A model generated the notes under the pieces. That model saw only the letters and a list, made by a program, of their open reading frames with translations. It searched no databases and had not been told where the DNA came from. Below are positions 3,016 through 26,308 of a DNA stretch of 64,000 nt, in pieces; position 1 is the first letter of the stretch, and each line of letters begins with the position of its first letter. Source of the stretch: Longimicrobiales bacterium (GTDB lineage Bacteria; Gemmatimonadota; Gemmatimonadetes; Longimicrobiales; Gaopeijiaceae); assembly GCA_963664435.2 (NCBI GenBank), contig CAXXKM010000002.1, positions 832,001-896,000 on the forward strand, in the 5' to 3' direction. The translations under genes and the position numbers were made by a program.

Positions 3016-3767
3016 GCCGATACCTTGCGGGGGTGTTTTTCCGCCCCGTTGGCGACGACCGCCGTCGGCTACTCGACGTTATTGGACCTCCTCATACGTT
3101 ATCGACCAATAGGAGATTCCGGGCGGGTTGACTTGCTGGCGGGTGGCTACTCAGCGTTCACGGCATGGAGACGCGGAAGCACCGATTCAGCACGAGGGTA
3201 GGCACTTCCCTCGGGGACCCCGACGCGCCGTCCCCGACGGCCTCGGTGATGAAGTCCCCGAACGTCTCGAACCTCTGGATGGACGGTAAGCGGGACGGAC
3301 ATCAAGGCGCGATTGGCGGCGCGTGGCTGGACCCCGATGCTGCAACGCGTTGCCTCGGCGCGACGTGGGAAATGGCCTATTCCCCACCCACTTGCACGAC
3401 TTGCCGACTCCATGTTCGCCTTCATGCCATGGAGATTGAGAGGAGGCGGTTCGCGGCGGTCGAGGGGAGGGTTCGGGCCGGATGTCATCCCCACGACGGA
3501 CTTTCGCGCCGTCACGGCGCGGACGCCCGAGCCTGGCTGGCGGTCACTCGCCCGCGGGGACGCGAGAAGGCGCTGAAGCCCTTTGGCTGGCTGGATCGCC
3601 GGGACAGCACTGCCCGGCATCCGGGGAGCGCCCGAGTCTTGCGGCATCCATGCCCGGAACCCTTGCCCGGCGCGGGCGCGGTGAGCCCGTGGAGGACGCC
3701 GACGCGGCGGGTTGAACCGGACCGTTCACGGGCGCGGCCCACGGGCTCGTTGGACGCTGCTATTTCA

Positions 3768-3840
3768 GACAAGCCAGCATACTCCTTGGGGCCACACTTC
3801 GCGTGTCCCCAGGAGAGGCTGGCGGGGGGCCTTGCCCCCT
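3768..3840 (-). other. oriT of element B (ColE1-like nic motif GCTGGCTT next to a hairpin)
   Basis: AAGCCAGC at 3771-3778 followed by the hairpin CTCCTTGGGG...CCCCAGGAG, just upstream of mobC. Confidence 0.6.
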
Positions 3841-3868
3841 GTGACCCCCGGACGGGCAACGGCGCGCC

Positions 3869-7430: not shown

Positions 7431-7800
7431 AGGAGCAGCCTCCATGCGCTTGAGATCTTGACCTCTGATCGGCCGGGGTCGGTGGCGTACCGCGCGTGCA
7501 CATCGACATCGGGGGGCATGTGCACGGAATCACCGCGTCCATGTGCGCGGGCAGGGGCTCCGCATATCGCTGCCCGCGTTGCGGTTGTACCACGGCCGCA
7601 CGAACGGCGGTGCCGTTCCAGAGTGTGCGGCCGTGGCGGGAGCGACCCCGCCCTTCGGGTGCCTGGTACGGCACGGCGACGGCCGGGATGTGCACTTCCA
7701 TCCCAACCTCGCCCGGGGTCGCTCCCGATCCATCAGTCCTTGGCAGGAAGGCTAGTCGGTCACCGGAGACGGTCGCGGCCCGAAGCCGAAGGCGACTGCG

Positions 7801-9160: not shown

Positions 9161-9244
9161 TCGAAGGGGCAAGCCCCTCGCCAGCCCCAAGTGTATTACT
9201 TTGGGTAGGCTGGCTTAACCACCTTAGCGTGGCTAAGCCAGCCC
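9161..9244 (+). other. Orphan ColE1-like oriT
   Basis: CCCCTCGCCAGCCCC-hairpin-GGGTAGGCTGGCTTAAC matches the oriT at about 14568-14610; second inverted copy TAAGCCAGCC at 9234-9243. Confidence 0.65.
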
Positions 9245-9568
9245 GGCGGTGCCGCCGGGAAACGCTCCTCCGGGCACCGCCCGGAAGAGTGCCCACCGGG
9301 CGAGCCCGGTGTCCTTCGGCGGCCTGCTTCGAGAGCCGTCCGCCAGCTGCTCCCTAAGCTGTTGTGGCAGCGGGTAGCGCGCTCGCGGATGTAGACCGCC
9401 CCGTTGGCCCGCGGCGGGAGAGGAGATCAGGCCGCATGGTCCTCCGTCGGGCGTGGAGGCCGACAGTCTGGAGACTCCCGCGAATCGAGGGGGCCGGACT
9501 TGCGCCCGCCAGACCCGCAACCGGACCGGCCAACGTCATGGCTGGGACAGCGGGCGGGTTACGGCCAT

Positions 9569-12571: not shown

Positions 12572-14140
12572 TCAGCGGCTCGGACCCTGATCGCGGTCCG
12601 GTCCCGGGCGGCGCATCAGATACGGAGGCCGCGCGGTCTCGCGACGGCGGATGTCCCGGAATACTCGGCCAAGCGTGTCGCCAGCGCGTCGAGCCGCTCG
12701 ATTCGCATCAGCAAGGCTTCGTACTCCGCGCTCTGCCGCTCGACGTGCTGCCGCAAGGCTTCGATCTGCCCGCTTTGCCGCTCGACGTGCCCTTGCAAGG
12801 CTTCGACCTGCCCGCAGTGCCGCCGCTGTTCCGTTTCGTACTGCTCGGACAACTTCCGCAAGGCCCTCGTCAACTGCTCCTCTAACGCTGTCATAGACCT
12901 CCTTCACTCGTTGGACAGCTTCAACGCCGGACGATCCCCATCCACCCACCAAGGTGGATCGGCCAGCACCCCGTCCGGCACCACCACGAACCGCTCGCCC
13001 TTGATCTCGTGGAACACGAGCCCCCAGGTGTCCACCTCCAGTTGGGCCAGCGTCCGCCGGGCGTCCTCGATGTCCCGGTTCAGTTCGGCGCGGGTCACGA
13101 TCCGGTCCTGGATGCTGCTCGCCAACCAGCGCATCGTCGCCCAGCTTCCGCCGAAGAAACCGATCCAAAGACTCAGGCCGACGATCAGCGGCCGTTGCCA
13201 CGCCTTGGCCAGCAATTCGCGCATCTTGCCGGTCGCCTCCTCCGTATCGCGCTCGATGGTACGCAGCGCGTTCCTCGCGACGCGCCGCGAGTTCTTGGCG
13301 AGCCGTTCGAGCTCGCTCGCGGTCAACTCCTCGATCTCCCGGCGCTCGCTCTTCAGCCGGCTCCGCAGCCTCTCGGTCAAATCGTTCGCGGTCGAAGTTC
13401 TCTCCATACAGTTCTCCTTTCAGCCGCCACCGGTCCCCGGTCTCGGGGTCCAGCGCGGTGAGGTAGTCCTTGCCCTGGCGCGGCACTTCGAGGCCCGCCT
13501 CCCGCAGTGCGGAGACGACATCGGCACGGTTCCGCACAGTGCCGTGCTCGACGCGCTGGAGCAGGTAGTCCCGGATCAGATCGCGGGGTGAGGATTCGAG
13601 CCGAAGCCCGGTCCGCAGCTGCGCCGCTTCGATGTAGGCGCGGTGGCCGGGCTGCTGCACTCTGGCCCTGGCCGGATCGTCGGGACGGCTCCAGCCGTGT
13701 TCGTGGTTGAAGGTGTCGCGAAGCGGATCGAACGTCCTCCGCCATCCCGGAGGCGCGATGTTGAGGCTCCGGCCGGTCTCCAGGTCGCACCGTGCGGCAA
13801 GGACATGCACGTGCGCGCCGCCGCCCTCCTCGCGGTGCAGCACGGCCGCCCACGCGTATCGGTCGGGCTCCAGCCCCGCCCAAGCCGTCTTCTCGAACAG
13901 GTCGAGCACCGCCTCGATCTGCTCGTCGGTGGGGTGGTCGTCCGGCGCCCAAGCGATCACGCCGGAGGTGTACCTGTGCTCGAAGTCGAGCGAGTCGGCC
14001 ACCGCGGCCACCATGTCCGGATTCCCCCGCAGCACCTCGACGCCCTCGCGCGGCTTCCCGGCAGCGTCCCGCTCCCCCAAGAGGTAGCCAGCCGCCTTGC
14101 CGGCCGAGCCGGTCCCGTGCGCCAGGAACTTAATGTGCAT
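12572..14140 (-). CDS. mbeA: Relaxase, ColE1 MbeA-like (paralogue of 4197-5798)
   Basis: Same motifs: YTSGVIAW, HREEGGGAHVHVL, DLETGRSLN. Confidence 0.85.
   Translation of the reverse strand: MHIKFLAHGTGSAGKAAGYLLGERDAAGKPREGVEVLRGNPDMVAAVADSLDFEHRYTSGVIAWAPDDHPTDEQIEAVLDLFEKTAWAGLEPDRYAWAAVLHREEGGGAHVHVLAARCDLETGRSLNIAPPGWRRTFDPLRDTFNHEHGWSRPDDPARARVQQPGHRAYIEAAQLRTGLRLESSPRDLIRDYLLQRVEHGTVRNRADVVSALREAGLEVPRQGKDYLTALDPETGDRWRLKGELYGENFDRERFDREAAEPAEERAPGDRGVDRERARTARQELAARREERAAYHRARYGGGDRQDARIAGQGVATAADRRPESLDRFLRRKLGDDALVGEQHPGPDRDPRRTEPGHRGRPADAGPTGGGHLGARVPRDQGRAVRGGAGRGAGRSTLVGGWGSSGVEAVQRVKEVYDSVRGAVDEGLAEVVRAVRNGTAAALRAGRSLARARRAAKRADRSLAAARRAAERGVRSLADANRAARRAGDTLGRVFRDIRRRETARPPYLMRRPGPDRDQGPSR
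12616..12894 (-). CDS. MbeD/MobD-like protein (overprinted)
   Basis: MTALEEQLTRALRKLSEQY; paralogue of 5446-5730. Confidence 0.72.
   Translation of the reverse strand: MTALEEQLTRALRKLSEQYETEQRRHCGQVEALQGHVERQSGQIEALRQHVERQSAEYEALLMRIERLDALATRLAEYSGTSAVARPRGLRI
12904..13407 (-). CDS. MbeB-like protein (overprinted)
   Basis: Close paralogue of 4930-5436. Confidence 0.75.
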   Translation of the reverse strand: MERTSTANDLTERLRSRLKSERREIEELTASELERLAKNSRRVARNALRTIERDTEEATGKMRELLAKAWQRPLIVGLSLWIGFFGGSWATMRWLASSIQDRIVTRAELNRDIEDARRTLAQLEVDTWGLVFHEIKGERFVVVPDGVLADPPWWVDGDRPALKLSNE

Positions 14141-14469
14141 CGCGCTCCGGGCTCTCGAAGCGAGCCAGCTCGCCGAGCGCGCGCTCGACGGCGACCAGAC
14201 GGGCGATCACCTCGACGGCTTCGGCCGACCCCTTGTGGGTGTTCGCCCAGCGAGCGATCTGGTTGAGGTTGTTGCCGATGCGGCCGACCTCCCGGGTGCG
14301 CTCGCGCTCGACCTCGGCCGCGCGGGCCGTCCAGGTCCGCGTACGGGCCATGGCTCGCCGGATGAGCGCTGACAGGGGCACGCCCGCGGACTGCGGCCTT
14401 GGACCGCCAGTCGGCGAACTCGGTCGCCGATACGCGGGCGGTGACGACGGCGGTGCGGCGCTCAGGCAT
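14130..14469 (-). pseudogene. mobC: mobC, frameshifted
   Basis: MPERRTAVVTARVSATEFADWRSKAA and LSALIRRAMAR...IGNNLNQIAR lie in different frames; shift near 14385. Confidence 0.75.
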
Positions 14470-14567
14470 CACGACGCACCGGCGCGGGGGGAAGGGGGCG
14501 GCGCCCCCATGCGCGACCGCCACGGGAGCGCGACGCGCGGGGGGTTCGAAGGGGGGGCGGGAGCCAT

Positions 14568-14622
14568 CCCCTCGCCAGCCCCGTTGTATGACAACGGGTA
14601 GGCTGGCTTACCGGGCTTAACC
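14568..14622 (+). other. oriT of element C
   Basis: Hairpin CCCGTTGT-ATG-ACAACGGG followed by TAGGCTGGCTTA (ColE1-type CTGGCTTA), upstream of mobC. Confidence 0.7.
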
Positions 14623-15990
14623 GCGTCAGACACCCCCGTCGCCGGCGTGTCCGAGACCCGGCGGCGACCGCCGGCCCTGCGGTGGCGGAGCTCCCCCGCG
14701 AACGCTTCGGAGAAGCCGTTCAACGGGCCTGGCGAAGCGCGGTCGGCGGCGGGATGGAGGCTCGCGATGCGGGGCCGTTCATGTACCCGGGAAACCGGAT
14801 CGGCGACCGGTCCCCGCCAGCGCCCCTGTCGAGGGGCACGGGCATCGATTCCGCCGTGGGGTGGATCAATCTGAACTACGCGTCTCCTCCCGCGTTTCGT
14901 CTCGTCTGGTCGCACTACCCTTCCACCCTTCGGTGACCCGAAGGGCGACACTTTACGGACTTGACCCGCAATTGGTTTCATCCTGGCTCTCCCGCGTTAG
15001 CGGGCAGGTCCGCGCACCGATGCGAGGAACCCTCCGTCAGCGTCGTCATACCTACAAGTCAGGAGGCCGAATCCGACCGTGTCAACTGCGCCGGAATCGG
15101 CGATGTCCAGGGGGTTCCAGCGTCGTCCCGAAGACTGAATTGACGCCGCCAGCGGCACCTCCTTCGCCCTTCCGACGCCTCACACGAGGCGCAACCATGT
15201 CCGGCCCGATTGCGGCTCTGTGGTCCTTAGGATTGTCGATCGCGTAGTCCTCTACCGTGACTTGCCGAAGCTCAACGCCGTAAAGGGCGGGGACGGCCGC
15301 CGGTCTAGCGACGGTCGCCGCGGGAGAGGTCGACGGCCCGGTCGTCGCTGGTGCATGTCGCGACCTCAGCGGAGCAGTGCGTCGTCTCCAGAAGCCGTGT
15401 GCCGTGGATGCTGTGGTTGCTGTCGATCCTCAAGCCTGTGGGAAGAGCGAGGCCGTCCTCTTCCCTCAAGTAAGGGTTGCCCAGGGGGGAGATCGTGCGC
15501 GAAGCTTCGAGGGCTGTCTGGCGGTAGAAGTCTGGCTTACTGGAGGAGATGATGCCGAAGCTGTACGTGGCCCACAACGTGCCGTGCAAGGTGTGCGGGA
15601 AGGGGCTGTTGAGTATCCCTCCGCTACTGCCTACAGAGGAGGAAGCCAATGCGTGGGGAGAGCAGGAGTTTCGGCGTCTCGCGCCGGGGAAGCAGTTGGC
15701 CTTCAAGGCGCGCACTTGTTCGGGACAGTGCTACGCTGCCTTGCCATCGTGGCGGCGGATCGCGCTCAAATCGCTACCTTTTCTCGCCGGGCGGCTCGGC
15801 TTCTAGCTTCACTACTAGGCGGACGCGCACCAAGGCCTTCCTAGTAGCGCGCTGTGAAGTTAAGTCTAGGGAAGTCGTTCACTGAAGCTCCGGTTGCGTA
15901 GCTGGGAGCGGTGGAGGGTCCTCAGCTTCTCACACCTGGGATACGCGGCTCAGCCGTCCATGAACTGCCGCCGCTCAAACGATCCTAGGC

Positions 15991-18458
15991 TCATCGAGCG
16001 GAGGCGGTGGGCGCTCCGGCGATCGCGCGCAACCTTCCGCATTGCTCGATCAGCCATTCGGCGGCCTCCGGCCATTCGTCTTCGTCGTCACGCGTCCAGC
16101 GTCTTCGGACCGCGACTGACCAGCCTTTCACACTGTTTTGCTCCACATTGTCGTCGACATCCTGATCGGCCATCTGCTCGAAGATCATCCAGGAGTACTT
16201 CCGCATCCGAGCGGTTCTCTCGTGCGATGCCTTGCTTTCCCCGGATCGCACATAGAGCCAGAGCCTCTCTGGGTTTCCGACGTAGATCCCGATAACGTCA
16301 CCGTGCGAGTTGAAGGGATCGGTCCACTGCGTTGCCCCCCTCCACGTATCCTTTTGTCCGGGAACGCCGCCGAAACTCTTCTTGAGGAACCTCCAGAAGG
16401 CTTGTGTCCGACTCTTCTCCTCGAACTCGACTTCGACCGCCACGCCGCATCGCTCCCCCATCTTCCGGCAATGGTCGGCACTCGCGCGGTAGTCCTGACG
16501 GTACGGGTACAGCACGTAGTCCTCATGGCCGGGGACTGCGCGCATGGTCAGGGTTCCCGCCGTGGTCCCAGCCGGATAGCGCTTAGCCAAGTGAAGATTC
16601 GAGCTGATCGCTTCCCCTGACAGTCTCTCAGCGTTCTTCGGATCCAGGCTGAGTAGGGCTGCCGCTACGCTCAGCAACATTTGGCTCGCACTGCTTTCCT
16701 CATGCCAAGCCCCATCCCCAACACGCCACCTGAGGCTCGCCGACGCGACCTTCGTGCGGCTCGCGGACCCGGCCCCGTCCTGCCAGGGCCAGCGGGCCAA
16801 CGCCCGCCCCGCCAAGTCCGCAGCCCGCCGTTCAATCGCGGCCTCGTTCCAGTCGTCCTCGCCCGCGAGCCGTCTCGTCAGCCCGATCGAACTCCGGCGG
16901 TACACCCTGCGCTTGGCGTCGAACGTATCCGTGCCCATTTCGGAATTGGTGACATCGCCGCTCAGCGTCAAGTTGGGGAGCCGGTCCCGATACCGCCCGT
17001 GTACTTCCTCGGCATCGCCGCCCAACGCTTTCTTCCAGTCGTCAGTCAGCTTCTGCGGCATCACATGCTCGATCGTCAGATGGTCGCGGGCCGGTGCTTC
17101 CTCACGGTGCTCGGCCTCCATGAGCGCACACAGAACCGCGAACGACGACCGGGTGGCGCTGCCTCCGTAGGCCTTACGGCTCCGAAGTCCTTCCCGAACC
17201 TCCTCGTCGTTGGGTATCCCGACGCGCGTGTTCCGAAGCCTACGAATCCGATTTAGCCAGTACTCCGCAACGTCATCCCCAGCATCAGGTCCTGGTCCAT
17301 GGGCGAGGTCTACGATCGCCCTGTTCATCCCGGCGGTCGCCCGGTCCGCGAGCCACAAGCGGGTGGTCCACATCGCGATCCCCGAAAGGGTGGTTGCGAG
17401 GTCGTTCATCTGCGCTCCGGGAGCAGCGGGTTCGCCCGAGTCATTTAGGAGTCGCAACGTCAGCGGACGGTGAATGTCGATCCCCATCACGCGTAGGTGG
17501 CGGAGTTCTCGTTCGACTTTAGAGTTGGGGTGCGCGCCCGCCGTGCCGATCACGATGCCGTACAGCCCTGCGAGCCGGGCCAGATCACGGCACAGGGCCG
17601 GTCGCTCCACAGAAAGCTCCTTTCGCAATGCCCACCGGCGAAGGGCTTCGTAGACGTGATCGATGCCTTGAACCTTCCCCGTCCACCAGCGAAGGACATC
17701 CCGAAGGAAGATGTCGGTGGGCTCAGTTGTGTGCTCGGCGCCCAGACTTCGCTCGATCCGCTTCCAATGGTTGTCGTGGAGATCCTGTTGCTGCTCGTCC
17801 GGCAATCCCATGAGGAGCCAGTTCTTGACCTTCTCGCTCTCCGTGAGAGGTCGGCCGGTCGCATTCAGGCTCTCGAAGATCTGCTGCGGATCGTCGCCGC
17901 CAGCGAGCCCGATGCTCACCACCCGAAGCCGTTCGAGTCCCCTCAGTAGGCGGGCGACTTCGTTTCGCGCAACGAGGCGGCGGGCGACTCTCCAAGCCTG
18001 CGCTACCGCCCCGGCACCCGTTGGACGGCCATCAAGGCCGAGTCGATACTCTTCCTCGTCGCCGTTCTGAAGCCTCAGCTTGCGCAGTTTGTCCGGGCGC
18101 TTTCCAGGATTCGTGAGCCGATCATTGCGGATGATGGCTGCCGTCCAGTCCCCGCATTGGCCCTTGGGTCCGAGCTTTTCCGCTATGCACCCAGGAGGAT
18201 GCTCACGGTCGTCAGCCTCTGCTGACCATCCACGACACGGATGGTCTTGACCACGCCAGCGGCACCGGGATCCGGGAAGGTGAGCAGGTTCCCGGCGTAG
18301 TGTGTTGCGTCGGGGCCCGCGTCCGCGACGGTCAGGAGATCCTCTACCAGCCGCTCGATATCGGATTGGCCCCAGCGATATCGCCGCTGCCAGCGCGGCA
18401 CCACGTATTGGACCTGTCCGTTGAAGAGTTCCAAGAACTCGATTGGGTGGGCAAACAT
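15991..18458 (-). pseudogene. GmrSD-type (DUF262 + DUF1524 HNH) nuclease with C-terminal extension, single frameshift
   Basis: YVVPRWQRRYRW, VVDGQQRLTT, IFESLNATGRPL, TIEHVMPQ, NLTL...N; frame changes near 18190. Confidence 0.85.
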
Positions 18459-18850
18459 GGACTCGCTTCCGTTCCTCACGATGGGTAGGGTGACCGATGG
18501 ACCAGCGTCCTATCGCCAAGAGTGGTCCGAAAGCTAGGGGCCACCGTAGGGACAGAGACGGGATGGCCGCCCAAGTATGACCTCTGCCGAAGTGGTGGGC
18601 AATCGCCGGTCGACGCCCCCTCGACATCCATGCTGCTCGCGGCGCCGCTGCCGTAGCGGCCTGCCCTCACCCTACGTCGAAACGCGGGATCAGCGGGCGG
18701 AGGGGGTGGCGGTTGGCAACAGGGTCGGTTCGTCCCAGGCCCTTGGCCCGGACACTAGATGGGATACCTTTAGCGTCGGCGTGAAGGCCGACGCAGTACA
18801 TGCTGACCTTTCAAGGACGGAGGCCGACGCGCGTCGGCACGGAGAACACA

Positions 18851-19477
18851 ATGGAGTCGTGTTTCATCTACTGGGACAATTCGAACATCTTCCACGAAGC
18901 TCAGCGGCTTGCCGAGGAGCGAGCCGAAGGTCCGGGCGCACGCTATCGGGTGCGAGTCCACTTTGACAGCCTGCTAGTACTCGCGAACGCAGGCCGGCCC
19001 GTCGAGCGGGCGTTCGCCGTCGGGTCGATTCCGCCCGAATTGCGTCAGCTCTGGAACCGAATGGAGGCCAACGATATCGAGGTGAAGTTGTTTGACCGGG
19101 GTGATCCGCACCGTGGTGAGCAGGACGTTCCGGACCGTCTTCTCCAACTGCGGATGCTCGAAGATGCGCTGGACTACAACGGCGATCCCGGAATTGCCGT
19201 ACTCCTCAGCGGCGATGGGGCTGGCTATCTCGAAGGTGCGGGTTTCCACCGGACGCTTGAGCGCATGCACAGCAGAGGGTGGCGTATCGAGATTCTGTCT
19301 TGGGCTCATTCCTGCAACCAGCGTATGCGGCGCTGGGCAGAGGAGCACGGAGTCTTCGTTGCGCTCGACGATTTCTACGAAGAGATCACCTTCATGGAGC
19401 CATCGAGTCCGGGCCACGAATTCGCTCTCCCAAGATCCCAAGCGCCACTCGACCTGTCCCGCCGTCCAATCTCCTAA
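18851..19477 (+). CDS. NYN-domain (LabA/DUF88, PIN-like) protein
   Basis: FIYWDNSNIF, EQDVPD, VLLSGDG, GWRIEILSW; RBS GGAG. Confidence 0.85.
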   Translation: MESCFIYWDNSNIFHEAQRLAEERAEGPGARYRVRVHFDSLLVLANAGRPVERAFAVGSIPPELRQLWNRMEANDIEVKLFDRGDPHRGEQDVPDRLLQLRMLEDALDYNGDPGIAVLLSGDGAGYLEGAGFHRTLERMHSRGWRIEILSWAHSCNQRMRRWAEEHGVFVALDDFYEEITFMEPSSPGHEFALPRSQAPLDLSRRPIS

Positions 19478-19656
19478 CGCGAATGTTCTGCGGACTGGTC
19501 CGTCCACTCGCAGCGGCGCTCGAACCGCCTTCCCAACAGGGAATTTCTGGACGGGGAGTATCCATGTCAAGCGGATGCCCGATTTTCTTGGAGCGACGTG
19601 TCTCGCAGCGCCCCTCGCGATGCTTCCGTTGCGGTGCCCGTTCTTGCCCGGCTCGA

Positions 19657-20658
19657 TCATCCGTGAACGCTCCCCGCCGGGCTGGGCGTCGGGAAGGCCG
19701 GGCAGGAGTATTCCCGCGGCGGGTGCGCCGTCCAAGTGCGGTCCTGCTGCACCAGGGCGTTGGCGAGGATGAGGAGCTTCCGCATCACGGCCGTCAGGGC
19801 GACCTTGGGCGGCTTGCCCCGAGCCACGAGCGCTTCGTACTTGCGCCCGAGGTCGGGATTGTGCTGGACCGCAGCCACTGCGGGCATGTACAGCAACTGG
19901 CGCACCCGGCGCCTGCCGCCCTGGATGAAGCTGCGTCCCTTCCAGTGTCCGGACTCCCGGGTGACCGGGGCCAGTCCGGCGAGGCTGGCGGCGCGGGGGC
20001 CGGTGAGGGTGCCGAGCTCCGGCAAGTGGACGATCAGTCCCGCGGCGGTGATGTCCGAGATGCCCGGGATCGAGGTCAGGATCTCGGCCCGGCGCTCCAG
20101 CGCCTTCTCCTCCTCCACCCGTTGCCGGATCTCTGCGTCGATGAGCTTCAGCTGGCGCTCGATCTGCCTCAGCCTCTGCCTGGTGACCCGCTTGCCCACG
20201 GGAGTGCGCAAGTGCCTGCCGCGGTTGGAGGTGGCGGTCCGGTCCTTGCGCAGCGCGTCGCGGATCTGCTGGAGCTCGGCAAGGTCGCGCTGCCCCTCGG
20301 ACTTCGCCTGCGCCGGGCGTAGGTCTTCGATGGCCGACGCCATGATGGCCAGCATCCGGGCGTCCACGGCATCGGTCTTGGCTCGCTGGCCGAGGGACCG
20401 GGCGAAGGACCGGACTTGGAAGGGGTTGATCGCATACATGGGGAGTCCGGCCTTCAGGAGGGTGTCCTCGAGGTCGCGGTGGAAGGCTCCGGAGGGTTCG
20501 TACGCGATCCGGTCGATCCCGGAGCCGATCCAAGCGATCAGTTTCCGGAAGCCGGCCCTGTCGTTCGAGAACCGGGACGCTCTCCCCTCGGGCGCCGCGA
20601 AGGCGTCGAGCCAGTCCTTGGAGATGTCGATCCCGACGGTGCGACGGCTGGTGCTCAT
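19657..20658 (-). CDS. IS110 recombinase (DEDD RuvC-like domain plus Tnp domain)
   Basis: VGIDISKDWLD, YEPSG, KTDAVDA, LTSIPGI, GLAPVTRESG, AVMRKLL. Confidence 0.95.
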   Translation of the reverse strand: MSTSRRTVGIDISKDWLDAFAAPEGRASRFSNDRAGFRKLIAWIGSGIDRIAYEPSGAFHRDLEDTLLKAGLPMYAINPFQVRSFARSLGQRAKTDAVDARMLAIMASAIEDLRPAQAKSEGQRDLAELQQIRDALRKDRTATSNRGRHLRTPVGKRVTRQRLRQIERQLKLIDAEIRQRVEEEKALERRAEILTSIPGISDITAAGLIVHLPELGTLTGPRAASLAGLAPVTRESGHWKGRSFIQGGRRRVRQLLYMPAVAAVQHNPDLGRKYEALVARGKPPKVALTAVMRKLLILANALVQQDRTWTAHPPREYSCPAFPTPSPAGSVHG

Positions 20659-20661
20659 GTG

Positions 20662-20870
20662 CTTTCCCTTTCTCCTGTGCTTGTCGTGCGAGCCTCGATG
20701 CTCAAGTATCCATTCAGGACGTGGGAAAGACGGTGGCGACCAAACTCCCGTACGGCCCTTGCGGCCAGCGACCCGACGGCCCGACCACCGTCTGTGCTGG
20801 ATGCCCGCTCCGGCTCGCTCCGCTCGCCTCTGCGGGCATCCAGCACACCGGGCCATCCCCGTGACCCGGA
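20662..20870 (-). ncRNA. IS110 bridge RNA (predicted; ends approximate)
   Basis: 16-bp 5' stem (20793-20808/20832-20847); two internal-loop hairpins carrying CGGGTCGCT/GGGAG (target guides) and ATGGATACT/GACAAG (donor guides). Confidence 0.8.
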
Positions 20871-21080
20871 CCTGCAAATCAAGCAGGGATCTCCAAGAAT
20901 GGAAGAGACAAGCGACCCGGGGCGGAGCGTGTCGGGATGTGTGCATCCCAACCTCTAGCCAGGCTCGAGCTGGACCCTCTCTGCCTCGGTCGGGGCCTTG
21001 GCAAGCCGGGGTGTGCGAGCACTAATCACGCCCGTGGATCCGCCACACGCGGCCGATGGACCGACAAGGAGGCTGTCGGA

Positions 21081-21989
21081 TTGACTAGCCACGAACGCGA
21101 CAACGCAAACAGGATCGGAAGGGCTAAGCGATGGGCTGGGCTGGCAATCGCCGTAGGTTCACGGCTCGCGGCCGTGCCCCGCTCCCTGGCCCAGATGCCC
21201 AATGAAGTCTGGCAGAAGCTGGCATCGCGCGGGACCACGATCAGTCCGGACGCCCTCTACGATCTCATCCCCGCGGGCGTAAAGACGGGGACCGACGATG
21301 TGCTGGCCTTCCTCGGGAAACGCGATCTCAGTCACATCAAGTCCAAGCACCGCCGACCAGATCTCGCGAACGACCCCACGAACGTTCTGTTCGAGAAGCG
21401 GTGGTGGAACCGCCGCCGCGGATCGCGGAACATGAAGCGGTGGGAAGTGACCCGCGCCCGGCTGGACAACTTCGCCGAGGGAGTGGTCAAGGGCGCGCGC
21501 GCCACTACAGTGGCAGCGGCCAAGGGGGCGATCCTGGGGGCTCTGATGGAATTGCCTGTGTCAGCCGCCGAGAATCTTGTTCTGGTTCGGGGCAGGGGTA
21601 AGAGCAGGAAGGAGGCGTGGACGGATGTAGCGCGCGACGTTGGCAGGAGTGCCGTGACCGGCGCGGCGGGAACCGTCGTGGCCACCGGAATCGCCATGAT
21701 CGGTGTTCCAATGGCTCCAGCAGTAGCGGTTCCGATTGCCGTGGTCGGGAGCACGCTCTACACATGGTCGGCAGCGGAACGGGTATGGAAGGCGCGAGCC
21801 AGGGTGGGATCGGCAGATCCGCCAGTGTTGGCTCGAGGATTTGATCCCGACTCTGCGCCGGACCTCTCGACGGACGGCTGGCCGGAGAAGTTTGCTAAAG
21901 CCCCCGTGCTTCGGGGGCTACCCTCCGATGGCGCGACCGAGAATATCTTTCCCCATCCGGTTGTCCCAGCGAGATACGGAGAACGGTGA
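21081..21989 (+). CDS. Hypothetical protein with an HNH-like motif and hydrophobic C-terminal helices
   Basis: RBS AAGGAGG with TTG start; DLSHIKS...DPTNVLFE...NRRRG; Gly/Ala-rich helices; GTGA overlap with the next gene. Confidence 0.6.
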   Translation: MTSHERDNANRIGRAKRWAGLAIAVGSRLAAVPRSLAQMPNEVWQKLASRGTTISPDALYDLIPAGVKTGTDDVLAFLGKRDLSHIKSKHRRPDLANDPTNVLFEKRWWNRRRGSRNMKRWEVTRARLDNFAEGVVKGARATTVAAAKGAILGALMELPVSAAENLVLVRGRGKSRKEAWTDVARDVGRSAVTGAAGTVVATGIAMIGVPMAPAVAVPIAVVGSTLYTWSAAERVWKARARVGSADPPVLARGFDPDSAPDLSTDGWPEKFAKAPVLRGLPSDGATENIFPHPVVPARYGER

Positions 21990-23266
21990 CCCCCAACGAA
22001 TTCATTGCGAAGTGGCACGCCTCGGAGCTGAAGGAGCGCTCCGCAGCGCAGGAGCACTTCATCGACTTGTGCCGCCTGCTCGACGAACCCACGCCAGCGG
22101 AGGCCGACCCGAAGGGCGACCACTACTGCTTCGAGCGCGGAGCGCTCAAGGACTCCGGCGGGGGAGGCTGGGCGGACGTCTGGAAGCGCCACTGCTTCGC
22201 CTGGGAGTACAAGGGGAAGCACGCGGATCTCGATGCCGCGTTCGATCAGTTGAGGCAGTACGCGCTCGCACTGGAGAACCCGCCGCTGCTGATCGTCTCC
22301 GACATGCGCCGGTTCCGGGTCCGGACGAACTGGACGAACTCCGTGAGCAAGACACACGAGTTTGGACTGGACGATCTCGCGGACGCTGCCGTCCGAGACA
22401 AGCTCAAGTGGGCGATGTCCGATCCCGAGCGGCTGCGGCCGGGGGAAACCCGGCAGACGCTCACGGAACGAGCCGCCGAGACCTTCGCGCAGCTCGCACA
22501 GTCGCTCCGAGTCCAGGGCCACGCCCCGCAGGAGGTGGCACACTTTGTCAACCGCCTCGTGTTCTGCATGTTCGCCGAGGACGTGGGTCTGCTCCCCAAC
22601 GCCATGTTCACTCGCATGCTCGAACACGCGCGTCAGCAGCCCGATGCGTTCGCGACGCTGGCGCGCGATCTGTTCGGGGCGATGTCCGTTGGTGGCCGGG
22701 TAGGGTTCGAGACCGTGGAATGGTTCAACGGCGGGCTCTTCGAGGATGACACGACCCTCCCCATGGACAAGGCCCAGATCGAGACGACCCTGAAAGCGTC
22801 CGGACTCGACTGGTCCAACATCGACCCCTCGATCCTGGGGACGCTGTTCGAGCGGGGCCTCGACCCCGACAAGCGCTCTCAGCTCGGGGCGCACTACACG
22901 GACCGGGACAAGATCATGCGGATCATCGACCCGGTGATCGTTCGTCCCTTGCTGGCCGAGTGGGAGACCGTGAAGGCGCGGATTGGAAAGAGCATCGAGC
23001 GCGCGAACGCGGCCAAGTCAAAGGGCGTGGAGACGCGCCACCGCAACCAAGCGGAGAATTCGCTCGGTGCGTTCCTGGAGCGGCTGCGGAAGTTTGCCGT
23101 GCTCGACCCGGCCTGCGGGTCCGGCAACTTTCTCTACCTGGCGCTCCACACCCTCCACGATCTGGAACACCGAGTGCAGCTCGAAGCTGAGGCGATGGGG
23201 CTCCAGCGCGGCTTCCCTTCGGTCGGTCCCGCGAACGTAAAGGGCATCGAGTTGAACGCCTACGCG
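21986..23266 (+). pseudogene. MmeI-like (type IIG/IIL) restriction-methyltransferase, 5' half, interrupted by element D
   Basis: WADVWK...WEYKG nuclease motif; LGAHYTD; motif I VLDPACGSGNFL; ends GIELNAYA at the core. Confidence 0.9.
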
Positions 23267-23362
23267 ACATGAGCACTTTGAGTCACATATCGTTGTGAGC
23301 GTGTAGCTTACGGGATTCGGGGGTCAGATTCCCGCTGATTGACTCCCGCCGATTGGTTTGGG

Positions 23363-24523
23363 TCAGGCGCGGACCCTCGGGCGACTGTCCAGAGCCTTCC
23401 TGAGTTGTCCGGCGTCGGCCTGCTGGTAACAGCGCAGCACCGTCTGGGCCTCCTTCCAGCCGCCCAACTCGCACAGCACCTTGAGCGGAAGGTCCATGAG
23501 ATCCGACGCGAACTTCCGCCTCAGCGAGTGCCAGCCTCTCCCTCGCTCGTGCTCCAGTCCCGCGAGCCGCTCGGCCTTATGCCACCAAGAGACTGCCCGC
23601 CCCCGGCTGATGCTCGATGATGGGTCCTGCGGCGCGGGCAGCACCAACGTCTCCCCGTTCCCGGGGTTCGCTTCCCGCGCCTCCTCCAGTACCGCGACCG
23701 CCTCATCGGTCATCGGCGTGACGTGCTCGTAGCCGGTCTTCTCGTGCTCGGCGCGCCACCGCACCTCGCGACCCTCGAAATCGATGTCCCCCCAACGAAG
23801 GTTGCGGATGGCCCCGATTCGGTGGCCGGTCTCATGGGCGAGCACGAACGCGACGTGGAACCTCCAATCGACCCGCCGGGATATCCCGAGCATCGCCTGG
23901 TACTCCTCCTCGGAGAGAACGACCCGGGTGGGGTTCTTCTCCTTGGGCGTCCTCAGGCCTCTGAGCGGGTTCGAGTCGAGCAGGAGTCTCCCCTCCTCGT
24001 CTCTGGATTTCGTTGCCCAGTTGAGCACCGCGAGCAGGAACTTCAGGTCCAACTCGATGGTGCGGTTGCCCACAGGCTTCCCGCTCGGTCCGATCCTGCC
24101 CGCCCGGCGCTCCCGGATGAAGCGGTCCCAATCGCGCTGGGACAGGGTCTCGGGCCTTCGGTCCCGCCCGAGGAAGTCGAGGAACATCCTTGTCCCGATT
24201 CTGTCCCGGTGCCGGACCCGCTCCGTCTTGGTGGGCGTCACCTCCTCACCGTAGATGTCAAAGAGCATCTCCAGCGTGAGCGGCTCGGGCTCGGCTTCCG
24301 CCTTGCCTTGGGTCGCGGGTCGAGCGAACCCGGCGGCGAACTCGTCAGCCTGCCGCTTCGCTTTCACCCAATCGCAATGCCCCAGCGACCGGGTGAGCCT
24401 TCGCCCGTTCTCGCGCCACTCAATCTGGAAGAGGCCGGTTTTCGGATCCGGAAAAACCCGGACCCGGTTCCGGCCCCACTCGCCGGCGCCGTAGCTCCGG
24501 CGGCTTCGTTTCGTGCGTGCCAT
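23363..24523 (-). CDS. Tyrosine integrase of element D (intact)
   Basis: ETGHRIGAI, HSLRR, LGGW, LRCY; RBS GGAGG. Confidence 0.93.
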   Translation of the reverse strand: MARTKRSRRSYGAGEWGRNRVRVFPDPKTGLFQIEWRENGRRLTRSLGHCDWVKAKRQADEFAAGFARPATQGKAEAEPEPLTLEMLFDIYGEEVTPTKTERVRHRDRIGTRMFLDFLGRDRRPETLSQRDWDRFIRERRAGRIGPSGKPVGNRTIELDLKFLLAVLNWATKSRDEEGRLLLDSNPLRGLRTPKEKNPTRVVLSEEEYQAMLGISRRVDWRFHVAFVLAHETGHRIGAIRNLRWGDIDFEGREVRWRAEHEKTGYEHVTPMTDEAVAVLEEAREANPGNGETLVLPAPQDPSSSISRGRAVSWWHKAERLAGLEHERGRGWHSLRRKFASDLMDLPLKVLCELGGWKEAQTVLRCYQQADAGQLRKALDSRPRVRA

Positions 24524-24667
24524 CGTTCGATACCTCCGATTCGATGGACTGCACGATCTGCGCGTTTGAAACCTCGCGCAGGGCTCGTCCGTCGTCCAGA
24601 GTTGGCGGTCCGGCCGGCTCTGGCGCGGGCGCGCCACGGGGGCGCTGGTTTCTGCGGTGTGTGGAGG

Positions 24668-24730
24668 AGCCAGATGTGTTTTCGCTTCACGAAAACCTCT
24701 GGCCGAGGGATGCCCCCGGACCCCCGAACA
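24668..24730. other. Putative oriT of element D
   Basis: Inverted repeat GCCAGATGTGTTTTCG...CGAAAACCTCTGGC upstream of mobC; the copy near 7270 has compensatory arm changes (GTTAACG/CGTTAAC). Confidence 0.55.
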
Positions 24731-24764
24731 ACATTCCGTGCGCCACCAAAGGAGGCCGCCCGAC

Positions 24765-25109
24765 ATGGCTCGTCCCCGGAAGCGCGACGCCGAGCGCAGG
24801 ACCCGCACGATCGGCGTGCGCGTCACAACCGCGGAAGCCGCCGAGATCGCCGAGCGGGCCGGAGCGGCCCGCATGACGAGGGGCGGCTACATGCGCCGCA
24901 GGGCGCTGGGGCAGCCGGTCCGCGAGGCAGCCGTTCACCGTCTCGGCGCTCGGGAGCGGGTCGAACTCCACCGGATCGGCGTCAATCTCAACCAGATCGC
25001 CCGCGCTCTGAACTCCGGGGCTTCTGCGCCGCCGGGGACTCTGGAGGCGGTCGAGCGGGTGGGCGAGCTTGCGGCCGATCTCCTGAGCGGCGAGGCGCTG
25101 GACCGATGA
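24765..25109 (+). CDS. mobC: MobC relaxosome protein
   Basis: RBS AAGGAGG; LHRIGVNLNQIAR; ATGA overlap with the relaxase. Confidence 0.88.
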   Translation: MARPRKRDAERRTRTIGVRVTTAEAAEIAERAGAARMTRGGYMRRRALGQPVREAAVHRLGARERVELHRIGVNLNQIARALNSGASAPPGTLEAVERVGELAADLLSGEALDR

Positions 25110-26308
25110 TCCCGAAGATCAACAGTCTGGGGCGCTCGTTCGCCGGTGCCGCGGCGTACTGTCTGCACGATTCCCCGACGCCGGACGACCGGAGTCCGGA
25201 GACCTCGGAGCGGGTTGCGTGGGCCGACACCCGCAACCTCGCGACGTTTCGGCCGGAGCGCGCCGCGCGGCTGATGGCCGCGACCGCGAAGGCGGCCCCC
25301 GACCTCAAGCGGCTGGCGGGGGCGGCGAGAGGGGGGCGCAAGCTGGCGAAGCCGGTGCTGCACTACTCGCTCAGCTGGGCGCAGGACGAGACGCCGGACA
25401 AGCGGGAGATGAGCCGCGCGGTGGACGAGAGCCTGGAGGCGCTCGGGCTGGAGGGCCACGAGGCGCTGGTCGTCGCACACGACGACACTCGGCACCCGCA
25501 TGTCCACGTGGTCGCCAACAGGGTCGATCCGGAGACCGGGAAGGCGGCGAAGCTGGGCAACAGCAAGCTCCGGCTGTCGCGCTGGGCCGAGGGCTACGAG
25601 CGGGAGCAGGGCCGGATCCGCTGCGAGGAGCGGGTCAGGAACAACGAGCGGCGGCGGGCGGGCCAAGAGGTGGTTCGAGGTCCGTCGAACCGGCCGCGCC
25701 ACTGGGCGCGCGTCCGCCGCGAGGGGTTGCAGCCCGGGCGGGCGAGGCGGGCGAGGAAGCCGCGCCGCGAGGATCAAGTCGACATGGAGGCATGGCGGCA
25801 TGCCGAGGCGGAGGCTTGGGAGACGGTCGCAGACGGGCGCGAGAGGGGCCTCCAGCACCTAGAGAGCCGGGCGCGCAAGGAATGGGCCGAACTGCACAAG
25901 CGGCAGGAGGAGATGCGGCAGAGGCTCGACCGGGAGAGCCGGACCGTGCTCGGGCGGCTCCGGATCTGGCGGCTCGAGCGCTCGCTCAGGGAACTGGTCG
26001 GTGCGGTCCGGGGCCGGGAGGATCTGGTCGAAGGCTGGCGCGAGGATCTCGCCCGGTACCACAGGGACGAGCGGGCCGAGTTAGGCAAGGCACACGGCGA
26101 GAGAGCCCGGGAGGTCGAGCGCCGTTCGCGCAAGTTCTATCGAAGCAGGCTGGTGGACGCGGAGCGGAACGCATGGGCGGTGCGGGAGAGGATGAGGGAG
26201 CGCCAGGAAACGAGGGAGCGGGAGTGCGGCCCGAGCATCGTCATCACCGTTCCCCGGCCGCCCCGGCCCCGAGGCCCCGAGCGTGGCGGTGGAGGGTTCG
26301 AGCGATGA
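25106..26308 (+). CDS. Relaxase/mobilisation nuclease (MOBP-like, not MbeA-type)
   Basis: GRSFAGAAAYCLHD, PVLHYSLSW, AHDDTRHPHVHVVANRV. Confidence 0.88.
   Translation: MIPKINSLGRSFAGAAAYCLHDSPTPDDRSPETSERVAWADTRNLATFRPERAARLMAATAKAAPDLKRLAGAARGGRKLAKPVLHYSLSWAQDETPDKREMSRAVDESLEALGLEGHEALVVAHDDTRHPHVHVVANRVDPETGKAAKLGNSKLRLSRWAEGYEREQGRIRCEERVRNNERRRAGQEVVRGPSNRPRHWARVRREGLQPGRARRARKPRREDQVDMEAWRHAEAEAWETVADGRERGLQHLESRARKEWAELHKRQEEMRQRLDRESRTVLGRLRIWRLERSLRELVGAVRGREDLVEGWREDLARYHRDERAELGKAHGERAREVERRSRKFYRSRLVDAERNAWAVRERMRERQETRERECGPSIVITVPRPPRPRGPERGGGGFER

Follow-up and report, generated by a model that had tools for sequence, protein, structure and literature searches.

Nested integrative elements with relaxases and integrases occupy positions 12572-26308 of the window (the whole 64,000-nucleotide stretch of this Longimicrobiales genome that was analysed), where they surround a defence cluster composed of GmrSD, NYN and a truncated MmeI-like gene. 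An insertion sequence of the IS110 group, hereafter copy A, lies in this island of GmrSD, MmeI-like, integrase and relaxase genes, between the NYN gene and an ORF of unknown function (Table 1). Its non-coding ends measure 252 bp on the left and about 100 bp on the right; the long non-coding region downstream of the transposase gene by which the IS1111 group is recognized is absent, and the guides described below lie upstream of the gene.

Table 1. Features of copy A, its insertion site and related sites, in positions of the window
Feature	Position	Strand	Remarks
Whole IS110 element with both CT cores	19557..20912	−	1,356 bp, 1,354 net; ends agree in 5 full copies and the empty site
Left CT core	20911..20912	−	
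Right CT core	19557..19558	−	
Left donor ATGGATA (element right end)	19559..19565	−	7/7 against left donor guide; identical in 61/62 homologues
Right donor TGTCT (element left end)	20906..20910	−	pairs with GACAAG
Left target CGGGTCG (host DNA)	20913..20919	−	7/7 against left target guide
Right target CCCCGT (host DNA)	19551..19556	−	2/2 at positions 10-11, 1/3 at 12-14
IS110 recombinase gene, 333 aa	19657..20658	−	D11, E54, D96, D99, S236; PF01548 + PF02371
Predicted bridge RNA	20662..20870	−	fold z -5.44; consensus fold; ends approximate
5' stem-loop	~20847-20793	−	predicted bridge RNA fold
Target loop	~20792-20729	−	predicted bridge RNA fold
Donor loop	~20728-20663	−	predicted bridge RNA fold
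Left target guide CGGGTCGCT	20767..20775	−	
Right target guide with extension GTACGGGAG	20745..20753	−	includes GGGAG at 20749-20745
Left donor guide ATGGATACT	20705..20713	−	
Right donor guide GACAAG	20680..20685	−	
Target-loop handshake bases TT	20743..20744	−	first T would pair with donor A7
Donor-loop handshake bases CA	20678..20679	−	first C would pair with target G7
-35 box TTGACA of predicted circle-junction promoter	19565..19570	−	17 bp from -10 only once circularised
-10 box CATTCT of predicted circle-junction promoter	20896..20901	−	
Upstream piece of decayed half repeat interrupted by copy A	20913..20955	−	profile positions 86-170 matched by the rebuilt site (28 bits, E 1.3e-8)
Downstream piece of the same half repeat	19517..19556	−	same rebuilt-site match
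Intact unoccupied ~170-bp inverted repeat	7596..7762	+	125.8 bits; 646 bp from tyrosine integrase
ColE1-like (class-2) site	14559..14644	+	467 bp upstream of MbeA-like relaxase; re-aimed relatives target it, copy A does not

Removal of the element on paper gave the rebuilt target CCGGGTCG-CT-CCCCGT, and its closure on paper gave the rebuilt circle junction CATGGATA-CT-TGTCTC, so that both junctions proposed by an earlier sequence-only reading of this DNA were reproduced. The source genome (G000) contains three full copies that are identical within their ends, copy A, copy B (C2:901456) and copy C (C3:1259617), together with two full copies at 87-88% (copy D, which is frameshifted, and copy E) and one decayed copy. 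The same CT-bounded ends were found in all five full copies, which disposes of the concern, raised in that reading, that other copies might end differently; CT also stands at both ends in 62 of 62 sampled insertions, the right-end anchor itself including CT. The repeats that harbour copies B and C are near-identical, and because the two insertions lie in opposite arms, each locus displays the empty site of the other. The empty site of copy A was found in contigs of two public runs, X4 and X13, which join 19556 to 20911 with 1,354 bases skipped and 2 bases shared; the short side of the joint is 28 in X4 and 157 in X13, where the joint lies on a single 1,360-bp contig at depth 104. These are two of the eight runs examined and both come from one study, the other six having no such joint. 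Thus, insertion A is polymorphic, and since it is polymorphic, it is probably recent. In the search of related genomes for the empty site, the right flank was absent as a whole piece from 40 relatives; no circle joint was present among the joints listed for the examined runs, which consist of contigs only, and the RNA runs X16 and X17 contributed contigs of diverged relatives in small share.

The recombinase passes the model NF033542 (209.5 bits against a cut-off of 140) and matches IS621 (PDB 8wt6; 113 bits, E 1.3e-31) and ISCro4/IS622 (PDB 9t56; 108 bits), the only solved structures related to it. D11, E54, D96, D99 and S236 align with D11, E60, D102, D105 and S241 of IS621, taken as catalytic from the accessible text of PMC11208158, and 73-74 of 74 full-length homologues share these DEDD and serine residues. 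Its close relatives belong to Longimicrobiales and Ca. Palauibacter, and the best plasmid-borne matches cover >90% of the protein at about 50% identity.

The four guide segments listed by the sequence-only reading are all present on the minus strand of the leader, at the positions that it gave. When the 252-nt leader was dinucleotide-shuffled 20,000 times, 0.2% of the shuffles contained the left-target 9-mer and 0.005% the left-donor 9-mer, and none contained the two 9-mers jointly or all four guides; the right guides are weak alone, with GGGAG found in 68% of shuffles and GACAAG in 8%. The segment from 20870 to 20662 folds into a 5' stem-loop and two stem-loops with internal loops, a layout also described in section 6 of PMC11208160 as far as the accessible text goes, and 0 of 200 shuffles reach its z of -5.44. 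Folding of this segment, which had been suggested as a check, returned the three-stem, two-loop RNA, and the layout was kept in a consensus fold from 29 distinct leaders with 98.7% of cells paired. Compensatory changes occur in 10 of 57 consensus pairs, compared with 3.2 in shuffles (0/500 reach 10) and 2-4 in slid controls; eight of the 10 are located in the 5' stem and one in the target-loop stem, whereas the donor-loop stems, nearly invariant among leaders, have none. The single-sequence fold leaves the donor guides open (unpaired probability 0.59-1.0). The target guides are likewise open in the centroid and the 29-sequence consensus, but the MFE and ensemble show partial self-pairing (unpaired probability 0.06-0.96). 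Rfam gave no match anywhere on the element. The purine-rich ribosome-binding region of the transposase gene (20662-20677) is the 3' strand of the donor-loop stems, and the folded leader would therefore limit transposase translation.

According to the accessible part of PMC11208158 (section 11), the base after each right guide makes a handshake with position 7 of the non-cognate DNA. In the sampled insertions, the first target-loop handshake base is T in 62/62 and donor position 7 is A in 61/62; the donor-loop bases are CA in 62/62 and target position 7 is G in 62/62. As these bases are invariant, they are consistent with the IS621 rule by agreement and not by covariation.

A sigma-70-like promoter is predicted to exist only at the circle junction. 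In the chromosomal form, the -35 position holds CGCCCC, and scans of the integrated element returned neither a promoter nor a terminator. The spacing at the junction is 17 bp in 52 of 62 homologues, as TTGACA-17-CATTCT in 19 and TTGYGA-17-CATAAT in 33, and 15 or 18 bp in the remaining 10. Both forms combine the 17-bp spacing with 9/12 consensus matches, either a strong -35 with a weak -10 or the reverse; better consensus matches in the 62 homologue junctions occur only at a spacing of 15 or 18 bp.

We then compared guides with targets across relatives. The start set comprised 87 sequences (five from the source genome, 74 loci from the best 80 of 103 matches, and eight further loci), of which 11 had no leader and 66 had both ends and flanks, and 62 unique insertions were kept. 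The match of the left guide to its own target averaged 6.08/7, compared with 4.77 in shuffled pairings; the corresponding values were 1.42/2 and 0.70 for positions 10-11 and 1.73/3 and 1.14 for positions 12-14, and in each case 0 of 5,000 shuffles reached the observed value, although these statistics are overstated because the 62 insertions are kin. Two left-guide classes were distinguished, GTCG (n=18) and CTGG (n=44): the GTCG-guide elements have a GTCG target in 18/18 cases, and the CTGG-guide elements have a CTGG target in 34/44 and a GTCG target in one, with 10/44 deviating at positions 4-7. Shuffles within the CTGG class reached the observed values in 3, 0 and 1 of 5,000 (left guide, positions 10-11 and positions 12-14), and those within the GTCG class in 12, 5,000 (positions 10-11 being invariant) and 4 of 5,000. 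The sequence-only reading had allowed that the matching segments might be stems that do not covary with targets; the target guides do covary with their targets, and self-pairing is limited to the partial pairing described above. On the donor side, covariation comes down to one change: a change in the right guide is matched by a donor C>T change in 5/6 loci, probably a single event. A quick tree suggests 1-3 changes of guide class, a tree that includes the mistranslated frameshifted row G0D, and among relatives at 84-99% protein identity, the right guide has at least 19 variants and the left guide at least 12.

The target of copy A had been described as a partial match; by the IS621 11-bp rule, it matches at 11/11 positions (seven left, CT and two right), and only the extension mismatches, with 1/3 of positions 12-14 matching in register, which is explained by one extra C. 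Copy C (C3:1259617) matches its guides at 16/16 positions. At copy E (C3:10333-11690), only 3/7 target positions agree with the left guide of the element itself, and the guides of copy D fit somewhat better, so that copy E was possibly inserted with a sibling's RNA or by a half match. In the CTGG class, tandem 4-8-nt duplications stand exactly at the insertion point in L054, L061, L062, L065, L070, L071 and L091; possibly, these mark places where an element repeatedly inserted and excised, or where a relaxase acted.

The GTCG guide has as its target either arm of an inverted repeat of about 170 bp, which is found in integrative conjugative islands. A profile built from 13 unoccupied repeats gave 31 matches, or about 28 loci, in the source genome, and the 10-bp arms vary jointly in at least six paired forms, as expected of hairpin covariation. 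The repeat contains the insertions of 16/18 GTCG-guide elements compared with 1/44 CTGG-guide elements, the latter a weak match; the site interrupted by copy A is a decayed 3' half that lacks a good partner arm. The repeat, which often occurs in facing pairs, also contains a pair of inner hairpins and a conserved 3' motif. Five repeats (for example, C2:130072, C3:70665 and C3:17024) have GGTCAC arms, in which target position 7 is changed from G to A in both arms, and none of the five holds a copy of the element in the source genome; escape from the guide is a possible explanation.

The targets of the CTGG guide were resolved more clearly. A class-2 profile built from nine unoccupied relaxase-linked sites spans the insertion point of 32/44 CTGG and 0/18 GTCG elements, and the site precedes 10/10 MbeA-like relaxase starts, within 389-461 bp, on the strand opposite the relaxase and upstream of mobC. 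ColE1 carries CTGGCTTA about 400 bp before its mobC in the same orientation; we take its nick to lie between CTGG and CTTA. The relaxase in the window is 32% identical to ColE1 MbeA (E 5e-27) and scores below the NCBIfam cut-off (97 against 500); tblastn of its N-terminus against plasmids returned nothing, although the direct comparison with MbeA matches. These sites are candidate transfer origins of the ColE1 type (MOBP), a clearer case than the class-1 repeat. An integron attC reading of the same targets, suggested by a motif, was dropped on the linkage to 10/10 relaxase starts. The source genome contains 24 ColE1-like sites, three of them in the window (3737-3841, 9165-9253 and 14559-14644). 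Such sites precede mobC and MbeA-like relaxase genes, and orphan copies occur near integrases.

Together, these data indicate an intact insertion sequence of the IS110 group. Its left end carries four guides, which match the insertion site and the ends of the element itself, and it very probably moves as IS621 does, via the predicted bridge RNA. The sequence-only reading had called it an IS621-type layout with a CT core, and this is borne out by the family, residues, long left end, fold, guide order, covariation, handshake bases and predicted junction promoter. By analogy with IS621, the element would circularise, joining TTGACA to CATTCT at 17 bp, and the junction would drive the predicted RNA. 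The DNA would then be opened by two recombinase dimers, at CGGGTCG-CT-CC by the dimer that carries the target loop and at ATGGATA-CT-TGTC by the dimer that carries the donor loop, and S236 and the DEDD centre would cut beside CT; the handshake pairs (C with target G7 and U with donor A7) would favour strand exchange. The left guide would set most of the specificity, with the right guide read more loosely, and the target hairpins may add specificity, as in ISPpu10. Copy A landed in a decayed half repeat inside an island of defence genes. The accessible text of recent reports (10.64898/2026.08.31.748434; PMC13626964) suggests that excision may be copy-and-paste and that insertion may tolerate half matches; such tolerance would fit both copy E and the loose right guide.

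That the matches are due to chance or are remnants of local duplication without any guiding role is extremely improbable and is largely refuted by the covariation: the right-guide words are indeed short and common in shuffles, but the two 9-mers never arise jointly, the guide order and loop positions are those of IS621, and the guides change with the targets across relatives. The repeat makes up 0.1% of the source genome yet contains 10/23 unoccupied perfect 11-mers, a share that is still only 10/23 when set against the 16/18 insertions; in addition, right-guide matches in the CTGG class amount to 57-64% per position at positions 10-13, and the accessible texts report precedents for stem-loop gating (10.64898/2026.03.19.712850) and half-match insertion (10.64898/2026.08.31.748434). 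These points would suit a real bridge RNA with the site chosen largely by DNA structure (an extruded hairpin) or by half-match recombination, and with a minor right guide. We consider this unlikely, because copy A sits in a half repeat that lacks a good partner arm, two GTCG insertions (L028 and L034) and 12 CTGG insertions lie outside repeats and mostly match their own guides, and the right guide covaries within its class all the same (0/5,000). A contribution of DNA structure can supplement the guide-directed explanation rather than displace it.

The function of the repeat is a separate matter. It lies within 110 bp of 6/6 coupling-protein gene starts, preceding the gene, after a 310-aa gene and near TrbL, and from this position we lean slightly towards the view that it is the transfer origin of the conjugative islands. 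The adjoining 310-aa ICE protein (L124:7691-8620) has 1,444 homologues, no Pfam family and no name from Pfam, NCBIfam or Atlas; an alignment-based structure model (pLDDT 75.5; the single-sequence model was poor, at 41.6) shows a MarR-like winged helix at residues 1-100 with Z up to 8.8. A relaxase reading of this protein found no match: Foldseek gave none at E<=0.001, VIA returned only winged-helix rows, and the C-terminal part was assigned no fold. The transfer-origin reading is therefore drawn from position only. That the repeat instead serves as an operator or promoter for the winged-helix protein, gives the coupling-protein gene a structured RNA leader or is REP-like is a real possibility, though short of probable: its arms covary as a hairpin, and no nick site was identified in the repeat. 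These roles are harder to reconcile with the fact that most other repeat copies have a tyrosine integrase, but no coupling gene, within a few kb and often adjoin ColE1-like sites, an arrangement like that of oriT-only islands, and that the sister CTGG guide class points at a relaxase-linked site. In MOBC/MOBM ICEs, moreover, oriT lies between the mating-pore genes and the relaxase, as far as the accessible text describes (10.64898/2026.01.13.699239). Rfam gave no match at gathering score near the repeat, only one chance match below threshold, and a REP/RAYT reading was rejected because no Y1 transposase (PF01797) is present in the source genome, which is 96% complete.

The bridge-RNA IS110 class has been published since 2024, and in mechanism, the element is ordinary. 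It shares with IS621 of Escherichia coli (PMC11208160, PMC11208158) the DEDD and serine recombinase, the long left end, the CT core, a 5' stem-loop followed by the target and donor loops in matching order, left guides of 9 nt and short right guides with an extension, as well as handshake bases, a predicted circle-junction promoter and insertion into a palindromic repeat, all read here from the sequence. It differs in its distant protein, its other guides and donor, its GC-rich Gemmatimonadota host and its target, which is a repeat of conjugative islands and not REP. ISCro4/IS622 has the same family and fold as the recombinase with a distant sequence. ISPpu10 is likewise a CT-core IS110 element that hits many copies of one stem-loop repeat, often paired, but its targets are REP and stem-loop gating has been demonstrated for it, according to the accessible text (10.64898/2026.03.19.712850). 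In the accessible part of PMC11187229, ISKpn4, ISPst6 (attC) and IS4321/IS5075 (Tn21 ends) show RNA-guided aim at recombination signals of other mobile elements, although these attC and Tn21 targeters belong to the IS1111 group, with a guide RNA downstream and subterminal repeats, and their targets are not transfer origins; ISEc11/ISXne4 and ISEc21/ISMch6 are close relatives with replaced guides, that is, natural re-aiming. Thus, natural re-aiming and the targeting of attC, Tn21 ends and REP were already published in that source. Targeting of oriT by IS110 elements was not found in the literature searched: "oriT" is absent from the main texts of PMC11208160 and PMC11187229, whose supplements may list such targets, and has only unrelated uses in the accessible text of two preprints.

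The element provides a clean polymorphic example from an uncultured Gemmatimonadota host, and its relatives form a natural guide series that shows how loosely the right guide is read. We tentatively suggest, at close to even confidence, that this IS110 lineage specialises in conjugative transfer origins, with its guide re-aimed between the ColE1-type nick site (CTGG|CT) and an undescribed origin of about 170 bp in Gemmatimonadota ICEs; such elements would hitch rides on the transfer of others or switch it off. If the targets are transfer origins, they would constitute a target class not found in the literature searched and a pointer to an uncharacterised ICE origin, and if the lineage does specialise in this way, bridge RNA guides would serve as pointers to unknown transfer origins.
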